Source of the DNA: Spirochaetia bacterium
GTDB taxonomy: Bacteria > Spirochaetota > Spirochaetia > DSM-27196 > Salinispiraceae
Direction of reading: 5' to 3'
Length of the DNA stretch: 64,000 nt
NCBI GenBank assembly: GCA_038204425.1
Contig: JBBRCZ010000006.1
Location: 80,363 to 144,362, forward strand
Made by a program: the position numbers and the translations under genes. The notes under the pieces are model-generated. The model saw only the letters and a program-made list of their open reading frames with translations, was not told where the DNA came from and made no database searches. Below are positions 9,056 to 18,875 of the stretch, piece by piece (position 1 is the first letter of the stretch; every line of letters begins with the position of its first letter).

Positions 9056-10012
9056 TTAGGTGATGCCTTTTTCAGAAAGCCAACGTTCGGCATCTAGGGC
9101 AGCCATGCAACCCGAACCAGCAGCGCTTATGGCCTGTCTGTACACATGGTCCTTAACATCACCTGCTGCAAAGACACCTTGTAGCGAAGTATGCGTGCTG
9201 TCCGCCTTGGTAATAAGATAGCCAGTTTCGTCACAGGATAATTGACCCTTGAGAAATGCCGTGTTTGGTTGGTGACCGATCGCAAAAAACAACCCTGACG
9301 CTTCAATAAGAACTTCGCGGCCGTCTAGGTTGTTTTTCGTCTTTACCCCAGTTAGCATTTTTTCTCCGACAGCCTCGGTGGCTTCGGTGTTCCATCGAAC
9401 TTCAATCTTGCTGTTGGCAAAAGTCCTTTCTTGCATTGTTTTACTGGCCCTTAAACTGTCTCGGCGCACCAAGAGGATCACTTGGCTGCCAAACTTTGAA
9501 AGGTAGTTGGCCTCTTCGCAGGCGGTGTCACCACCACCAATAACAACAAGAGGCTTGTTGCGAAAAGCGGGCAAGCCACCGTCACAAACAGCACAGGCTG
9601 AGATTCCTCGCTGCCAGTATTGGTCTTCGCCTTTAATTAAGAGCCTTTTTGCCGTAGCTCCCGTCGCAATAATGACTGCGTGCGCAAAGTACTCTCCAGA
9701 ATCGGCTACTATCTTTTTGGGACTCACGCTTAAGTCCACTTCATGAACGGTCTCGGTGAGAACTCTCGTGCCAGATTTGATTGATTGTTCTCGCATTTTT
9801 TCCATCAACTCTGGCCCTTGAATGCCATCAGGAAAGCCGGGAAAGTTCTCTACTTCGGTTGTTGTAGTGAGTTGGCCACCCGCAGCCACACCACCGGCCA
9901 TAAAGCCCTCAAACATTAAGGGCATGAGTTGGGCCCGCGCGGCATAGATGCCCGCAGTGTGCGCGGCTGGGCCAGAACCAATGATAATTAGACGCTCAAC
10001 TTCGTTTGCCAT
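9056..10012 (-). CDS. trxB: Thioredoxin-disulfide reductase
   Basis: GSGPA, VENFPGF, CAVC active site, [10 protein letters not shown] and [12 protein letters not shown]. Confidence 0.96.
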
Positions 10013-10041
10013 AAAAAACTCCTGAAACCTTGGTCAGTTAG

Positions 10042-10070
10042 AATATGACTGGATTGAATGTTTGTGGCAA
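10042..10070 (-). promoter_or_regulatory. sigma70-type promoter of trxB
   Basis: TTGCCA-17 nt-CATATT on the minus strand. Confidence 0.45.
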
Positions 10071-10103
10071 GTCAAAACGTGACACGCCCACTATGCAGAA
10101 GCA

Positions 10104-10505
10104 TTAATCAGGCTCACCAAACCTTCGGGTAAAGTGGATGCTGCGACCACCGTCTTCCCAATGATGCTCGCTGGCAAACTCGTCAAAGATAAAAAACCCA
10201 TGCCCTCGCTCGCCGCCAATTTTTCTTTCTGCCATTACTCGAGCAAGGTCAAACCCTTGTCCGCTGTCGCTTACAACTGCCAGCCAGTGATCATCAAATA
10301 GGCGAATATCAATACTAATACACTGCCGTGGGTCAAATAAGCCACCGTGTTCAATCGCGTTTTCGACTGCCTCTCTGAAGAGCAGTTCTATAGCGAAGCG
10401 GTCGGCACGGTTCTTAATCAAGGACAAATGCTCTTTGAGCGTAGCAAAGAATGCTTCGGCTTCCATTGAGCTCGCTTGTATGATAAAAGAAATTGCTTGT
10501 TCCAT
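10104..10505 (-). CDS. Stand-alone anti-sigma factor / Ser kinase (RsbW/SpoIIAB-type HATPase)
   Basis: EAVENAIEHG, VSDSGQGFD and ERGHGFF boxes. Confidence 0.85.
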   Translation of the reverse strand: MEQAISFIIQASSMEAEAFFATLKEHLSLIKNRADRFAIELLFREAVENAIEHGGLFDPRQCISIDIRLFDDHWLAVVSDSGQGFDLARVMAERKIGGERGHGFFIFDEFASEHHWEDGGRSIHFTRRFGEPD

Positions 10506-10662
10506 AATTATAGCTAAAAGTATCGTGCACTGCTGTCTAAACTTCCAGAAAAACGCGTTTAAATTTCACCTATAGACTAAAAAAGTCCAAACCAGACAAT
10601 GTCTTCCAAACTGTACTTTGTTTACCTTGCAGTCTGGTGGGTGTCGGGTTAGAATGAACACA

Positions 10663-12408
10663 ATGAAGGCGTCTCTGCTATTTCTACCTATCAAATCTAA
10701 AGCTCCGAGTGTGGCTCTACCCTCTCTAACGCAACTCTTAACCGATGGTGGTTATATTCGTAGCATCGGTGATGGTCTCTACGCTTTTTTACCGCTTGGT
10801 ATGCTTGTTTTGCAAAGCATAATCCAATTGATCCGCACCGAGCTCAAAAGGCTCGGTGGTCAAGAAATCTTATTGCCAATGGTGAGCCCAATGCCACTAT
10901 TGGAAGCCACAGGGCAGGATCAAATTCTGGGGAGTGAGCTGCTTACTCTAAAAGATAGCAAAGACCGAATCTTGGCTATCGCTCCTTCACACGATGCGCC
11001 CATGCTGGAACTTTTAAAGGGTGTCTTGCATTCGAGCTGGCAATTGCCGGCCTACTTTTTCCAGATCCAAGCCAAGGCCAAAGACGACCTCAGCCTTGGA
11101 AGTGCAGAAGCAGGCTTTTTGGCGCCGCGCGAATACTTGATGAATGATTCATTTAGCGTTCATCAAAGCTTTACGCAACTAAACAACTTTATTCCAAAGA
11201 TTTACGGTGCGTTTAGACGCATATTTACGCTTTGTGGCCTGGAGCCCTTAGTATCAGAAGGTGCTCCGAGTGATCCTTTTGGCTTGCACAGTCATGATTT
11301 TATTGTGCTGGACAAGCACGGTGATTATCGGGTGGTAGTTTGTGAACAATGCCACTATATTGCCGACCAAAGGCTGGCAGTTGGCTTGTCCAAGATTAGC
11401 TGTCACCGCCCCTTGCCCCTCGAGCGTGGATCAAAGACGGCGACGCATTGTTTGGGGGATCTTTTGAGGGAGCTGGGGTTTGCCACAAGTCAATTGGCGC
11501 TTGCTCATGTTTACAGTGCCCAAAAAGGCTTTGTGATGGCTGTTGCAAGAGCAGATCAGGCCATTAGTCGGGTCAAATTGAGTAGAATTTTGGGTGAGCC
11601 CATTTTTCAAGCCCTTGATGCGTCTGCACTGGAATCCTTGGACCTCTGTCCAGGTTTTATGTCGCCAATGGGTTTGGATCTGCAAGATACGCTGTCGTAT
11701 GGATTAAGGATAGTAGTAGACAAGTCGGTTGCAGAGACACCTAATCTACTGATTGGTGCTAACCTGTCCGGTGAGTACTGGGTCAACAGCAATTTTGGTC
11801 GGGACTACGAAGCACATCTGGTTGGTGACATTGCTGTTGTTGATGAACGCCAACGCTGTTATCACTGTGGTGGTGAGCTTAAAGTATATGAGGCAATCAA
11901 GATTGCCTCTATTGATCGTGTCAATGATATGCACTCGCGCGCTCTGTCATTGTTGGTCAAAGACGACAAGGGTACTTTGATTCCCCCTTGCATGGGATTT
12001 TACGGTTTGAGTATCACGCGACTTTTGGGAGCGGTGGCCTTAAGCTACCGGGACGAACGAGGGCTTCGTTGGCCATTGCAAGTTACTCCTTACAAAGCGG
12101 TGCTTCAAGTTGTAGGAAAGAATTTTCGACTTCAGCTTCTTGCCCAAGAAATCCATGACTCGCTAGGCGAGCATCTACTGTGGGATGACAGGCCGATTTC
12201 ATTCTCGCAAAAATGTCTCGACGCTGATAGAATGGGCATTTCTATGCGGATAATCATTTCTACGGCAAGTCTCGCAGATCGAAGTGTTATGATTCTGTCA
12301 CGAACCGGTACATTGAGGAAGCGTGTCACTTTTCATACCGTTAGGTCGGTTTTGATGGAGTACTGGAGGCTCGAGCGTGAGGCCCACGGACTACACGAAG
12401 AGGTATAA
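10663..12408 (+). CDS. Degenerate prolyl-tRNA synthetase paralogue (catalytic, INS/YbaK and anticodon-binding domains)
   Basis: Colinear with bacterial-type ProRS (GLYAFLPLG, QLPAYFFQIQ, REYLMND, GAN, NFGRD, MGxYG, RGLRWP, DDR), but key residues are substituted. The start is placed at ATG 10663, 7 nt after TAGAAT. Confidence 0.85.
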   Translation: MKASLLFLPIKSKAPSVALPSLTQLLTDGGYIRSIGDGLYAFLPLGMLVLQSIIQLIRTELKRLGGQEILLPMVSPMPLLEATGQDQILGSELLTLKDSKDRILAIAPSHDAPMLELLKGVLHSSWQLPAYFFQIQAKAKDDLSLGSAEAGFLAPREYLMNDSFSVHQSFTQLNNFIPKIYGAFRRIFTLCGLEPLVSEGAPSDPFGLHSHDFIVLDKHGDYRVVVCEQCHYIADQRLAVGLSKISCHRPLPLERGSKTATHCLGDLLRELGFATSQLALAHVYSAQKGFVMAVARADQAISRVKLSRILGEPIFQALDASALESLDLCPGFMSPMGLDLQDTLSYGLRIVVDKSVAETPNLLIGANLSGEYWVNSNFGRDYEAHLVGDIAVVDERQRCYHCGGELKVYEAIKIASIDRVNDMHSRALSLLVKDDKGTLIPPCMGFYGLSITRLLGAVALSYRDERGLRWPLQVTPYKAVLQVVGKNFRLQLLAQEIHDSLGEHLLWDDRPISFSQKCLDADRMGISMRIIISTASLADRSVMILSRTGTLRKRVTFHTVRSVLMEYWRLEREAHGLHEEV

Positions 12409-12414
12409 AACACA

Positions 12415-13305
12415 ATGAGCTTTGAACTGAGCCCAGATTTATTGAACGATTTGATTTTTGGCATGGAAAATCAGCAGGCCCAACAAGTTCTTGATACTAA
12501 GTCGCTAAAACTCATTGAGGGTCGCCCAGAGCTAAGCGATGATGTAAACTATCTGCTTCTGCCCGAATGGACGTCAGCCAATGGTTTTGAATTGATGGAG
12601 AGCTTCGTACTAGGGCTGCACAGTCCATTGTTAAGAGAGCGCCTGTGGTCAATTCTGGAGAGCGGGCGCGGGGTCTTTAAAAACTTTAAGGCCGCATTGC
12701 GAGAAGAGCCAGCACTCGAGCAAAAGTGGCAGCGCCACAAGCGCTTGGCGATGAGAAGTCATATTTTGGGTTGGTACAACGAATTAAGAGACTATTGGGG
12801 GCTTTTGCCGATCGCGGCCATGGAGGAAGAGGACGGAGATACTACTGAGCTGGTCAAGTGGGACTTTAGTATTCGATCGGCGGACATAGAGCATATTGTG
12901 TCTCTTACTAGTTTAGATAAACACTACTTCCAAGAAAATCTGCGGCAACTTGACTTGTCAGATCTAAGCCAGGATGGAGCTGAGCAGCTTTTTTTGTACT
13001 TTAGAGAAGGCCTTGCGCCGCCCCGGCCAGAGCAATTTATAGTTTGTTATACTCCAGATGACGAGATAGCTGGCTTTCTTTGGTATCAAAACCGTTGCGG
13101 ACTCAATGAAATTCTTCAACTTGCTGTCGCAGAGGCTTATCGAGGCTTGGGAATTGCTAAGTCGCTGATGGAACAATTCCACAAAAAGATTGCTGCTAGC
13201 ACAGGGCAAAAAATCATTGTAAAACTGCCTTCTCAGCCAACTTGGGTTGCTCAAAGTTTTGAGAAACAAGGGTTCAAAAGTCTCGGTTCAATTGCTTTGT
13301 TTTAG
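12415..13305 (+). CDS. UPF0158-like domain fused to a GNAT acetyltransferase
   Basis: N-terminal LIFGMENQ...LPEWTSANGFELMESF...GRGVFKNFK. C-terminal acyl-CoA motif LAVAEAYRGLGIAKSLM and FEKQGF. Confidence 0.75.
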   Translation: MSFELSPDLLNDLIFGMENQQAQQVLDTKSLKLIEGRPELSDDVNYLLLPEWTSANGFELMESFVLGLHSPLLRERLWSILESGRGVFKNFKAALREEPALEQKWQRHKRLAMRSHILGWYNELRDYWGLLPIAAMEEEDGDTTELVKWDFSIRSADIEHIVSLTSLDKHYFQENLRQLDLSDLSQDGAEQLFLYFREGLAPPRPEQFIVCYTPDDEIAGFLWYQNRCGLNEILQLAVAEAYRGLGIAKSLMEQFHKKIAASTGQKIIVKLPSQPTWVAQSFEKQGFKSLGSIALF

Positions 13306-14177
13306 GCTTGCAACCTTATATTTTCGGCGAAGACATGTATGCGTTCAAGCTCAGCCATAACTGCGTCAGCGACTGCTTGTTTGGGATCTTCCTCGGTCCG
13401 GCCGCGATTGGCGGTCCTAAACTCTTTGGTGTCGAGAATCGTGTCGGCATAGAAGACAACTTTATCAGCAAAAGGCATGTCTTTGGTCATGTCGCCATTT
13501 GGATTGGGACGCAGGGTATTTCCTGCGATGCCGATCAAAAGTAGGTGGTCAAAGGACTTTATGTAAGAGTCGATTTCTTTTAGACCTCTCTTGGTTTGGT
13601 CATGACCAGGTCTATAACGTGTCCCAGAAGGAAAAACTAGAACTATGTTGCCTTTGTGTTTGTGACGGACCATTTCATGTAACGCGGCCATGTTAATCGA
13701 ACGAGCTCGCATAACTTCCTCTTGAGCTGTTGGGCCATCCTCTTTGAGTTTGCTTAGGCTTCTGGATGGATAGATAACGATCCGGCTGTAAGCCTCAGCA
13801 AACGCGCGTGCAAAATTGGTTTCTTCGTTAAGCTTAGCACCCGCCATCGCAATGATCTGATTGACTGCAGCTTTAGCGTCTGCTGAGTGCTGTTCCATTA
13901 AGTAGAAGAAATTGGGAATATCAAAGTTAGAGTAGTGTTCCATGAGTATCAGACAGGATTGGCCGGCCTGTGCTCGTCGGGCTAGTTCCAGAATATTTTC
14001 CATACCGGCCACCTGGCTGCCTGGCGTGATCAACTGGCCCAAAAGTTTATCAATGTGTAGGCGATTGGCGAGATTTGCGACTTGGAAGACATTGCTTGGA
14101 TCAATTCTGGCGGCTTGGACGGAGTTTTTGAGCATGACCGCAATTATTTCCTGCGCCATTACATCTATAGATTTCAC
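13302..14177 (-). CDS. Glycerol-3-phosphate / 1-acylglycerol-3-phosphate acyltransferase
   Basis: HX4D motif EHYSNFD and VFPSGTR. The start is placed at GTG 14177 after AGGAG. Confidence 0.8.
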   Translation of the reverse strand: MKSIDVMAQEIIAVMLKNSVQAARIDPSNVFQVANLANRLHIDKLLGQLITPGSQVAGMENILELARRAQAGQSCLILMEHYSNFDIPNFFYLMEQHSADAKAAVNQIIAMAGAKLNEETNFARAFAEAYSRIVIYPSRSLSKLKEDGPTAQEEVMRARSINMAALHEMVRHKHKGNIVLVFPSGTRYRPGHDQTKRGLKEIDSYIKSFDHLLLIGIAGNTLRPNPNGDMTKDMPFADKVVFYADTILDTKEFRTANRGRTEEDPKQAVADAVMAELERIHVFAENIRLQA

Positions 14178-14375
14178 CCTGGTGGCTCTCCTGATCAAAA
14201 ATTGGCTTGAGTTAAGAAAAAAACCGCATAGCCATAGAATAGAATCCAGCAAGTAGTTATAGATTGTGTTTGTGATCGTCAATGAGCATGTGCAAATCTT
14301 TGATACTTGGTATTCGTGTAAACATAGTATCACAAAAAAGTTGCTTCTCGTCTACTGGCAGGTGTTAAGCTAAAG

Positions 14376-15431: not shown

Positions 15432-18400
15432 ATGCCAGAACTAGAGCAACTTGAAAAGTTTAACCAAGACCTCATCAATATCGGCGACGAACCAGCCCAG
15501 GCTAAACGCCGAGGCGAAGATATAGAGAGGGTTATGACGCCCGAGGAATATCCTCTCAATAATGTAGGTTCCGGCGTCAAAACAAACAAATCAACCGTCA
15601 GTGCTTCAAATGATGAGGGCCAAGGGCAGGACGATGCCTCGGCCGGAACTGATGATTTTCTTGCCAGTTTGGAGCCAGATCTATTTGAGTCGAATGACGA
15701 TGAGTCCGGCGGCTCTCCGATTGACTATGGTGAGCTCGGTCTTGGACTTGATGATGAAGCCTCCAGTTCTGCACAACCTGATGACGATGCGTCAGACCTC
15801 TTTGAGGATGACTTGCTATCCACTATTAATGCTGGTTTGGGCGATGAGGACTTAGAACAAGATGCTGACGCCACCGAAACCAAGGACGACGAAGCAAGTT
15901 TCTTAGACGGCTTTAGTGATGACTTTTTGACTGGCGGGCAAGACGCTCTGACAGAGTTCGATGCCGAACTTGAAACTGAAGCTGAGCCTGAAGCAAAACT
16001 TGAAACCGAGCCTGAAGCAAAACTTGAAACCGATAAAATACTTGAAACAGACGATCTTGATTCTATTGAAAATAGCCAACTCGGTGATCTCCCCGACCTA
16101 GATGATGATCATTTTATTGGCGATCTGGCTTCCAGTGATGATCCAGATACAGAACTTGATTTGGTTTTGCCGGATGATTCAAGTCCGGGGGCGGTAGACG
16201 CCGGTCTTGACCTCGGTGCTGATTTTGATGAACTAGGTCTAGACGACTTTGAAACAGATGCTGACAATGAATTTCACCAAGCTGCGCAGAGTTTTGATGC
16301 TGATGCCATAGCTGGAAGTCAAGCGGACGCTGAGGCAGTAAGCGCTAGTTCTGACGAATTCCCCTCAATGCCTGATTTTGGCGCCGACATGGATGCCGAC
16401 TTTTCTACTGACAGCTTTAATGACGAATTTGACATGAGTGACTTTGGCAAAGACTTTGGTTTGATGGAAGAAGTCAAGTCAGAAGACTGGGGTAAGCCAG
16501 GTGCTGGAGCAAAGTCAGATGACAACAAACTGTCTGTCGTGTCTGATGCCGAAGAAGAAATTCAAAAAGTAAGCATACAGGACGAAGCCGAAGCTTTTGA
16601 AATTTCCGATAAAGATTTTAAGTACCTTCAAGATAGCCTGAGTGCAATGCCGCTCAATCTCAAAATCGCAGCAGAAGAAGTGCTGGCCTCCGAAACCTAT
16701 AGCTTTGAAGAGCTACGATTATTGATTGGCATGCTGGTTAGAGGTGACAGTCCCAAAGATATAGCAAGTGTTGTTAGCCGGATAACTGGCAAGAAAATAA
16801 AGGTTCCTGCAGGCTATCAGCGCAAAACTGGTCTGGCTTTTGAGCAAGAACAAAAGAGTTTTGCCTATCAGTTTAGACATAATATTGTTCCACTGCTTCG
16901 AGTGGTTTCGCTCAGTTTTGTCGCCGCTGCTGTTCTCTTCTACGCCATTTATGAGTTTGTTTATCGACCAATTTATGGAGCCAGCCTCTACGAACAAGGA
17001 TTGCAAGCTATAAGAAGTGGCGAGTTTGATAGTGGCAATCAGTTTTTTAAATGGGCTTGGATCCAGTGGCCCGACGAGAGCCGCTATGTTCAATATGCCC
17101 AAGCCTTTAGAGAAATGCGTGCCGACGCTAAGGCACGAGAAAAGTTTATAGAACTACTAGGTAGACCCAATGTTAAGGACAAACCGATTGGTGTAAATCG
17201 ATTGCATCGACAGGGAATTTTGCAATTTGCCGATTTTCTGGGTTACTATCGAAGAGAATACTCATTGGCCGTCAATTATTTACAACGCTTGGTAGACGTC
17301 AACAAATTTGACCACGATCCAACTATTATGCAAGGCGACATCTTTTTGGAGTGGGCTCGCTACACCAGCTCAAGCAGCGTTTTTTCCATAGAAAGGAACG
17401 GCCGTATCGAGTCTCAAAAGACTGTCGCGGATCTGTATGAGGCTGCACGCTACAACTATGCAAGTCTTATTTCTAGCGAAGGCCAGACCGACATACTATT
17501 GTCTAGAATGCTCAGGTATTTTATGCGAACGGGCAACGAAGACGAAGTAGTCAAGATCAAGAATCTGTTTCTTAAGGATTCGGAAGCAAAGCCTGATGGA
17601 AATGTTACTGCAGAGTTGGCAGGTTACCTGATAGATAGCGCAGAGGGCAACTTTAAGATAATGGATGAGGCTTACAAACTTATTCTCAAGTCGATCAATG
17701 GCGGCTACATGGAAGAGCCAGGGCTGCACTACCAATTGTCGCGCTATTCACGCTTTTTTAAGAGCCAGGATGAAGAAGAAAAAGCACTCAAGTGGGCCAG
17801 AACCTACTATGAGCGCCTTCAAGAGAAGCGTGCCTTTAACCAGTTTGAACGCACTCAGTATATCGACACCTTAATTAGGGATGGCGAGCGTCTCTACGGC
17901 CCTCTCTATGGCAATACCGACCTACTAAACGCCATAAACGTGCTCACTACGGCGCGTGAACTATACGACAGTGGTCTCAAGGCGTCTCTCTTACCGGAAA
18001 AAACGCCTTTGCTTGGCAGGGTCTACGCGCGGCTTGGCGATGTGCTTTATTATGATGCGCGAGATCTACCCGGCGCGCTGCGTCAATATAGAATTGCACG
18101 TGATCATGGCTATGGAAATACGCCAAAGGAAGTAGGCTTGGGTTCGGCGGGACTACTGAGTCAGGGAACACACAAGCGATTGTTCTTGCCCGTCGGCGAT
18201 GCAGGCGTGCCCCACCTTTCTAGTGTCGAACTCATAGAAGCAGCGCGCGATATCGCTTACAAATCAGGCTACGTCTACTACAACCTCGCGAGAGTTATGC
18301 GCCCGCGCAGCGTCGACCAAGAGCGCAATTTTGATAGAGCCGCTTCTGAGTTTATTCAGGCAGAGGGTGCTTTAGTGCATCGCAACATCAATCTGCAGTA

Positions 18401-18875
18401 CGCAATTGCAAACACGCACTACTTGCGAGCAAACTACGATGCTGCTTCTAGTGAGTACCGTTTGATCCTTGAGCGTTTGCGTTTAGAACGCGAAAACATA
18501 CCCGAGCTGCTACTCGAGGAAGACCCCGCCCATCGTGAGCTTGTTGAGTTTATGATTCGCGTTAACAATAACCTTGGCGTAAGCTACTACCAACTCTATC
18601 GCCAAGGCGGCGTAGATGCGGCAGAAAACCTCGGCCAAGGCTTGTTCCATGTTGGACGTGCGATTGAGTTGTACGAAAACGCAGCGCGCAGCCCAGAAAC
18701 TGCAGTGCGAGCCGAACGGAAGAGCCAAGCCTATAATAACCTCAGAGCCATGATAGCCAAAGACTTTACCGATTCGGTAAGCATTACGCTCGACCTACGT
18801 CGAGACCTATCACATACACTTTTTAGCAAAGATCTAATGACCATACCAGAAGCATCACCTGAACCTGTCCGATAA
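15432..18875 (+). CDS. flcA: Periplasmic flagellar collar protein FlcA-like (acidic N-terminus, one TM segment, TPR region)
   Basis: MPELEQLEKF..IGDEP N-terminus, a long Asp/Glu-rich region, PLNLKIAAEE, a single TM segment and TPR-like helices with NNLGV. This architecture is recalled from spirochaete FlcA. Confidence 0.7.
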   Translation: MPELEQLEKFNQDLINIGDEPAQAKRRGEDIERVMTPEEYPLNNVGSGVKTNKSTVSASNDEGQGQDDASAGTDDFLASLEPDLFESNDDESGGSPIDYGELGLGLDDEASSSAQPDDDASDLFEDDLLSTINAGLGDEDLEQDADATETKDDEASFLDGFSDDFLTGGQDALTEFDAELETEAEPEAKLETEPEAKLETDKILETDDLDSIENSQLGDLPDLDDDHFIGDLASSDDPDTELDLVLPDDSSPGAVDAGLDLGADFDELGLDDFETDADNEFHQAAQSFDADAIAGSQADAEAVSASSDEFPSMPDFGADMDADFSTDSFNDEFDMSDFGKDFGLMEEVKSEDWGKPGAGAKSDDNKLSVVSDAEEEIQKVSIQDEAEAFEISDKDFKYLQDSLSAMPLNLKIAAEEVLASETYSFEELRLLIGMLVRGDSPKDIASVVSRITGKKIKVPAGYQRKTGLAFEQEQKSFAYQFRHNIVPLLRVVSLSFVAAAVLFYAIYEFVYRPIYGASLYEQGLQAIRSGEFDSGNQFFKWAWIQWPDESRYVQYAQAFREMRADAKAREKFIELLGRPNVKDKPIGVNRLHRQGILQFADFLGYYRREYSLAVNYLQRLVDVNKFDHDPTIMQGDIFLEWARYTSSSSVFSIERNGRIESQKTVADLYEAARYNYASLISSEGQTDILLSRMLRYFMRTGNEDEVVKIKNLFLKDSEAKPDGNVTAELAGYLIDSAEGNFKIMDEAYKLILKSINGGYMEEPGLHYQLSRYSRFFKSQDEEEKALKWARTYYERLQEKRAFNQFERTQYIDTLIRDGERLYGPLYGNTDLLNAINVLTTARELYDSGLKASLLPEKTPLLGRVYARLGDVLYYDARDLPGALRQYRIARDHGYGNTPKEVGLGSAGLLSQGTHKRLFLPVGDAGVPHLSSVELIEAARDIAYKSGYVYYNLARVMRPRSVDQERNFDRAASEFIQAEGALVHRNINLQYAIANTHYLRANYDAASSEYRLILERLRLERENIPELLLEEDPAHRELVEFMIRVNNNLGVSYYQLYRQGGVDAAENLGQGLFHVGRAIELYENAARSPETAVRAERKSQAYNNLRAMIAKDFTDSVSITLDLRRDLSHTLFSKDLMTIPEASPEPVR
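15984..16031 (+). repeat. In-frame 24-bp tandem duplication (EPEAKLET x2)
   Basis: gagcctgaagcaaaacttgaaacc occurs twice, flanked by degenerate cttgaaac copies. Confidence 0.9.

Follow-up and report, generated by a model that had tools for sequence, protein, structure and literature searches.

A prolyl-tRNA synthetase paralogue with most catalytic residues replaced, from an old family spread across the Spirochaetia

Repurposed paralogues of the aminoacyl-tRNA synthetases, such as HisZ, PoxA/EpmA, Glu-Q-RS and SLIMP, have opened new biology. HisZ, which derives from HisRS, and SLIMP, which derives from SerRS, are class II paralogues that do not aminoacylate and act by binding partners that are known, according to the accessible text of a 2022 review (PMC9437257). 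For prolyl-tRNA synthetase (ProRS) the table of that review, in the part available, has a single entry, ProRSx of Streptomyces. ProRSx is a diverged P-type paralogue found beside the housekeeping enzyme; it is described as an active enzyme whose gene accompanies that of a tRNA with a changed anticodon (PMC9437257, PMC10404621). Two types of ProRS also occur together in Bacillus thuringiensis, where the P-type and E-type enzymes are both active and the P-type keeps Arg144, as far as the available text of PMC11229370 goes. P-type enzymes with an INS domain are represented here by those of E. faecalis (2J3L) and S. aureus (5ZNJ), both of the TIGR00409 type.

We have analysed a relative of these enzymes encoded in a 64,000-nucleotide stretch of DNA from a Spirochaetia bacterium (the window). 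The original prediction, made from the sequence, was that of a ProRS paralogue of about 580 residues with an intact reading frame and all three domains, and this holds. The gene is a single uninterrupted frame, and positions 10155-12679 are reproduced with no differing letter by contigs of a sequencing run from a separate study, which excludes an assembly error in the gene; in strain data the one difference inside the gene lies in a short contig of depth 2. The product has a catalytic core, an INS domain between two CxxC pairs and an anticodon-binding domain, in that order, with PF00587 and PF04073 above the Pfam cut-offs and PF03129 found weakly, below its cut-off. An AlphaFold2 model has a mean pLDDT of 85 and superposes on 2J3L with a TM-score of 0.86, and the ESM Atlas returned solely ProRS clusters. 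The three-domain fold is thus that of an active P-type ProRS (TIGR00409/PRK09194), but the protein falls below both NCBIfam score cut-offs (314 against 558 bits and 244 against 306.7 bits). No relative was found in viral contigs.

Pairwise alignments to 2J3L and 5ZNJ confirmed all the substitutions listed originally (E. faecalis numbers, counted from the alignment). In the proline-binding and motif 2 region these are T109S, E111D, R140K, E142D, R151A and F155Y, and the motif 2 loop has no arginine at positions 144 and 146, with neither arginine nor lysine between residues 143 and 150. Further changes are E209D, E407K, G409A, H410S, C440F and G444S. In the editing domain the changes are K279L, H366Y and T257K, where His366 and Thr257 are, to judge by their conservation, presumably residues of the editing pocket. 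The K279A mutant is the standard editing-defective ProRS (PMC3973320, accessible part), and Arg144 reads G72/A73, its mutation causing a 270- to over 1000-fold loss (PMC11229370). For the residues contacting proline, adenine, phosphate and metal, roles were taken from their equivalents in M. tuberculosis ProRS, as given in the available text of PMC13629369. Both CxxC pairs are retained, as had been claimed, and so are two features that had not been mentioned, the motif 3 arginine (Arg447, Arg453 here) and the GxxxP of the editing loop (Gly331 and Pro335). Altogether one of ten core catalytic and editing residues is left; among the TXE loop, the motif 2 Arg, Glu and Phe, the metal-binding Glu and the motif 3 Arg, the last is the sole survivor. 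Judged on these residues, it is most improbable that the protein still functions as a ProRS. Many of the pocket changes are conservative (Glu to Asp, Arg to Lys, Phe to Tyr), with charge class preserved at positions 111, 140, 142, 158, 212 and 453, so that some residual chemistry may survive.

Features of the locus, with positions in the window.
Feature	Position	Strand	Remarks
Gap between divergent genes	10506..10662	.	would contain the promoter
ProRS-2 pseudo-synthetase gene	10663..12408	+	581 aa; P-type ProRS architecture
Start of family signature helix, residues 169-178 (L173-N174-N175-F176-x-P178)	11167..11196	+	polar/variable in ordinary P-type ProRS
First CxxC pair, C227 and C230	11341..11352	+	kept in 12/12 decayed members; putatively zinc-binding
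Leu280, replacing editing Lys279	11500..11502	+	from alignment
Second CxxC pair, C399 and C402	11857..11868	+	kept in 12/12 decayed members
Lys413, replacing metal/ribose-binding Glu407	11899..11901	+	from alignment; Lys/Arg in 12/13 decayed-clade proteins
UPF0158-GNAT acetyltransferase gene	12415..13305	+	6 bp downstream of ProRS-2; usual, non-obligate neighbour
Acyltransferase (PF01553), convergent	13302..14333	-	in conserved spirochaete block running to flcA
FlcA flagellar collar protein	15432-18875	+	long acidic N-terminal region; three genes downstream, conserved block

That the gene is a paralogue is borne out by a canonical family I (E-type, archaeal-type) ProRS elsewhere in the genome, at G000:C5:119173-120609, whose 612.7 bits exceed the cut-off of 437; a second P-type gene was sought in the genome and not found. 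Among 1533 long ORFs ranked crudely by codon adaptation, this housekeeping gene lies at percentile 91 and the gene studied here at percentile 13. The two tRNA-Pro genes that were found carry Pro anticodons and C1/G72/A73 ends of the bacterial kind, and the 41 tRNAs of the assembly, which is 95.6% complete, showed no Pro-type tRNA out of the ordinary; contig C6, which carries the paralogue, has no tRNA genes. The paralogue is also the only gene in the assembly in which a PF04073 domain was found.

In a tree of 281 P-type sequences, from which proteins shorter than 500 residues and duplicates had been removed, the relatives of this protein form one clade of 121 members, which we call ProRS-2. 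The support of 1.0 for this clade is that of the original trees; the re-rooted tree, whose node labels may be shifted by one, was used for topology alone. The clade is marked by the pattern N-x-F-x-P at residues 174-178, found in 120 of the 121 members and in none of the 160 other P-type sequences, and by Leu64, Pro442 and Gly485. As positions 174, 175, 176 and 178 are variable and polar in ordinary ProRS, the sequences suggest that Asn174, Asn175, Phe176 and Pro178 make up an exposed helix face, with internal repacking as the alternative. The 581-residue protein has the signature, the position in the clade and the GNAT/acyltransferase synteny of the family.

ProRS-2 is matched in 86 of the 99 genomes of the order. 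G096, whose sole match scores like an ordinary P-type enzyme, was dropped from the order count, and another ProRS, either family I (two are fragments) or a second P-type, accompanies ProRS-2 in 80 of 85 order genomes; the remaining five have fragmented assemblies, and 10.2 misses would be expected from incompleteness by itself. Across a class sample of 201 genomes, 60 outside the order score at least 646 bits, a boundary checked on G224 and G124. A second P-type gene is present in 23 of these 60 and family I in 35 of the other 37. In total 138 of 145 ProRS-2 genomes carry another ProRS (12 of 12 among single-contig genomes); for most genomes membership was assigned from the score and not by inspection of individual sequences, and related genomes are not independent data. 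Family I was sought in five of the 23 genomes with two P-type genes and found in none, so that the housekeeping role falls to one enzyme or the other and ProRS-2 is additional. In G027 and G098 an ordinary P-type copy is present besides family I and ProRS-2, which makes three ProRS genes. The family I enzymes of G042, G012, G048, G098, G224 and G234 score 503-530 bits rather than about 600, which suggests a separately acquired E-type enzyme.

A sample of 121 genomes from the phylum gave no ProRS-2 outside the class; three top-scoring matches outside the class, like that of G124, proved on checking to be ordinary P-type enzymes, and a second homologue search with a new alignment gave no additional members. 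ProRS-2 is an old, class-wide Spirochaetia paralogue family, mostly with intact motifs, which the original prediction had missed. It has apparently not been described so far: no description of a second spirochaete ProRS was found in the literature, and 'Spiroch' is absent from the main text of the survey PMC5388404, though the supplements of that survey and of the original ProRSx paper could list such genes. The family is hidden, as an intact member scores above the TIGR00409 cut-off and would receive the ordinary proS annotation.

The surroundings of the gene are conserved as well. The GNAT gene lies directly downstream in 27 of the 29 loci retrieved with the ProRS query, usually with enolase divergent upstream. 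Over 102 clade loci GNAT is present in 95 and enolase in 90, against none of 36 loci outside the clade, a count inflated by the retrieval of many loci via GNAT and by the use of syntenic members in setting the limits of the clade. The ProRS-2 and GNAT genes overlap or abut in 54 of 71 pairs. Where most relatives have enolase the divergent upstream gene here encodes an HATPase_c_2 protein. The enolase of this genome is found at G000:C12:9226-10524 and is 86% identical to that of G002 and 71-73% to those of G003 and G006, which suggests a distinct lineage or a replacement. The divergent upstream gene makes it probable that ProRS-2 has its own promoter, as had been proposed, but a scan found one consensus site against 0.4 +/- 0.6 in shuffled sequence, which is not above chance; no Rfam match was found in 9900-13500.

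An obligate partnership of ProRS-2 with GNAT is ruled out, as either gene occurs without the other. No ProRS-2 was seen at any of 11 GNAT loci labelled Treponema, two of which extend only a little way upstream, in five loci enolase directly abuts GNAT with no ProRS-2 between them, and none of five ProRS-2 genomes lacking an adjacent GNAT had one elsewhere, in a search that had no positive control. A complex prediction for the two proteins scored 0.00 against a mark of 0.32 and was counted neither way. The UPF0158-GNAT fusion is itself conserved across the Spirochaetia, its N-terminal domain much better than the GNAT domain; the literature search found no described function for this N-terminal domain and one passing mention, and the ESM Atlas returned unnamed UPF0158/GNAT clusters. 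Records retrieved through this gene are nearly all labelled Spirochaetota. One of 80 is labelled Collinsella; this locus (L141) carries the spirochaete UPF0158-GNAT gene and is probably a mis-binned contig.

The protein studied here belongs to a decayed sub-clade of 12 members (support 1.0), eight of which are proteins without genome context; G002, G003 and G006 of the same taxonomic family are among them. While 78 of the 98 intact ProRS-2 members have all ten core residues, these 12 have between one and seven, the 581-residue protein being the most eroded. Arg144, Lys279, Thr257, His366, Glu407 and a glutamate of the anticodon domain, which we take from its conservation to be functional, are absent from all 12. 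Glu407 has become lysine or arginine in every one; a thirteenth, shorter protein that the length filter removed (P0013) keeps the glutamate. By contrast Asn174, Asn175, Phe176, Pro178, Leu64, Pro442, Gly485 and all four cysteines are present in 12 of 12, and the motif 1 residues are the best preserved, while the family-specific Phe177, Val202, Glu304 and Leu430 are not kept in every member. Decay has occurred on at least three separate branches, the others being L293 with P0021/P0025/P0082 and P0027/P0019, with the signature nearly always intact; it also persists on a further branch in which Glu111 is exchanged. As read from the alignments, the order of loss is that tRNA-reading, editing and metal-binding residues go first and the dimer core, the CxxC pairs and the family motif stay. 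In one assembly (G005:C50, L288:1-433) an N-terminal ProRS-2 fragment fuses in frame to unrelated sequence at a contig end; it is either a chimeric assembly or a truncation. The unrelated part resembles a PEP-utilising enzyme.

Despite these losses the genes are under purifying selection and not in neutral decay. NG86 estimates of dN/dS are 0.09 and 0.10 for G006 against two G007 fragments, 0.18 and 0.17 for G003 against the same two, and 0.28 for G002 against G003. These values cover sister pairs rather than this genome's own branch, dS being saturated in its every pair; there dN is 0.60-0.69, against 0.62-0.73 for the neighbouring GNAT gene. Constraint has been relaxed, the median ratio of dN to that of family I ProRS being 2.92 in decayed members (10 pairs) and 1.94 in intact ones (66 pairs), where the pairs are not independent. 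Searches did not detect ProRS-2 in two genomes of the same taxonomic family, G001 and G004, or in four of genus g18; the gene is therefore dispensable.

As the residues contacting tRNA and metal were lost first and the scaffold and family-only surface never, we read the 581-residue protein as a folded, selected, non-catalytic partner or regulatory subunit in the manner of HisZ or SLIMP, which neither charges nor edits tRNA-Pro; we would give this reading an even chance of being right. The pseudo-synthetase inferred originally thus stands as a selected paralogue that is unlikely to be a working ProRS, while two of the roles offered for it, scaffold and ProRS heterodimer, are disfavoured below. 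Like its parent, the protein would be a zinc-stabilised homodimer. The residues found only in this family (Asn174-Asn175-Phe176-x-Pro178, Leu64, Pro442 and Gly485) may together provide the surface on which a partner protein docks, a job that could have arisen in the ProRS-2 ancestor and that would explain both the retention of the family beside another ProRS and the repeated shedding of catalysis. The old pocket (Lys140/Arg453/Lys413, with Tyr158) may still hold a ligand that carries phosphate, for example a nucleotide, in the absence of metal, and so tune partner binding. The co-translated GNAT is one candidate partner, but cannot be an obligate one. More broadly, and with rather less than even confidence, we propose that ProRS-2 is an ancient family of free-living Spirochaetia selected for a role outside translation, docking on a partner by means of its family-specific surface and sensing a nucleotide or amino acid, in which catalysis has been shed several times independently and the 581-residue protein, with lysine at the metal site, is the end of the series.

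An alternative that we consider unlikely is altered chemistry, a tRNA-independent adenylation or ligase reaction or one on nucleotides (e.g. to Ap4A), with Lys413 in place of the metal and a substrate other than proline. It would fit the preserved charge classes, the survival of Glu111 in 11, Arg140 in 10 and Arg447 in 10 of the 12 decayed members and the shared change of Glu407 to lysine or arginine. A separate ProRS-2 sub-lineage has moreover exchanged Glu111 for leucine or isoleucine (and Thr109 for serine) with the ATP-binding residues intact (L167, L292, L296, L297, L298, L150, L176 and L178). However, Arg151, Glu209, Glu407 and Gly409 are gone in most of the decayed clade, two members lack Arg447, and the pocket residues vary from member to member with no convergence on a new set. 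The ligase of changed specificity that had been suggested is possible for the motif-intact relatives, the Glu111-swapped members being candidates by their sequences, and unlikely for the 581-residue protein, where neither the metal-binding Glu nor the motif 2 Arg survives.

Full-length proteins with a dead synthetic core also occur outside ProRS-2, in 23 of the 160 other P-type sequences (P0009, P0010, P0064, P0087, P0114, P0116 and 17 more). All 23 keep Lys279, Gly331, His366 and the anticodon-domain Glu and, to judge by this pattern, are likely to be editing-only proteins. The decayed ProRS-2 clade, although similar to them in its dead core, has lost three of these four residues in 12 of 12 members (Lys279 in 0/12 against 23/23). 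The 581-residue protein, with Lys279 changed to Leu, His366 to Tyr, Thr257 to Lys and GxxxP alone kept, was accordingly rejected as an editing-only relic.

These relics bear on a second alternative, decidedly improbable in our view, that the protein is a tRNA- or RNA-binding scaffold or sensor. The HisRS-like domain of GCN2 is a precedent for such a role. LeuRS2 and SLIMP are also described in this way in the accessible text of PMC9437257. The anticodon-binding domain is conserved like the rest of the protein (38% mean identity), Lys517, Asp520, Arg529 and Arg547 are present, and the mean net charge has risen from -12.8 in ordinary enzymes to +3.0 in decayed ones. Nevertheless, the acceptor-reading Arg144, Lys279, His366 and the anticodon-domain Glu, each at 0/12, were among the first residues to go; the editing-only relics, which must bind tRNA, retain Lys279, His366 and this Glu without exception (23 of 23), and the tRNA complement described above offers no unusual Pro-type substrate. 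A scaffold for tRNA-Pro, as originally suggested, is thus disfavoured.

There is a slim chance that the protein is simply a redundant ProRS in slow decay, with the signature no more than entrenched structure. The higher dN of the decayed clade, the apparent absence of the gene from some members of the family and the position of this protein as the most eroded member would agree with this. Against it, reading frames remain open across 33-51% identity, synonymous sites are saturated while dN is 0.2-0.7, a frame of equal length stayed open in none of 200 neutral simulations at 0.1 substitutions per site, and new residues, Lys413 and Gln236 among them, have become conserved across the clade.

Trans-editing of Ala-tRNA-Pro on behalf of the family I ProRS, which lacks editing, is highly improbable: although no other PF04073 domain was found in the genome and the protein retains Gly331 and Pro335, it has lost Lys279, Thr257 and His366, which the true editing-only relics keep, and in 23 genomes ProRS-2 is maintained alongside an ordinary P-type ProRS. 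Equally far-fetched is the idea that the protein is an obligatory partner in a heterodimer with the housekeeping ProRS, in the way SLIMP pairs with SerRS. The well-kept motif 1 residues and the near-constant presence of another ProRS would suit it, but the housekeeping enzyme can be E-type or ordinary P-type depending on the genome (the two types are about 25% identical over local matches), and the family motif does not change with it.

If the non-catalytic, partner-binding reading and its extension to the family are correct, ProRS-2 offers a natural gradation with an active synthetase at one end and a pure pseudoenzyme at the other, and with intact, pocket-rewired and disarmed members sharing one fixed motif the transition becomes testable. 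Compared with the P-type enzymes of E. faecalis and S. aureus, the 581-residue protein is alike in fold, domain order, length and motif 1 core, and differs in its one remaining core residue, its sub-threshold scores and a helix signature of its own. As in B. thuringiensis (PMC11229370), a P-type and an E-type protein share the genome, but here the P-type is disarmed, and the ProRS-2 family also coexists with a second P-type. As with ProRSx a diverged P-type paralogue stands beside the housekeeping enzyme, but the core is disarmed, no tRNA is linked to it and no altered-anticodon tRNA was seen, both tRNA-Pro having Pro anticodons in an assembly that is 95.6% complete; it does not belong with ProRSx. 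In its way of working the protein most likely resembles HisZ and SLIMP, in that the catalytic residues are lost and the fold is kept under selection, although ProRS-2 descends from ProRS, keeps its INS and anticodon-binding domains and consists mostly of members with intact motifs.
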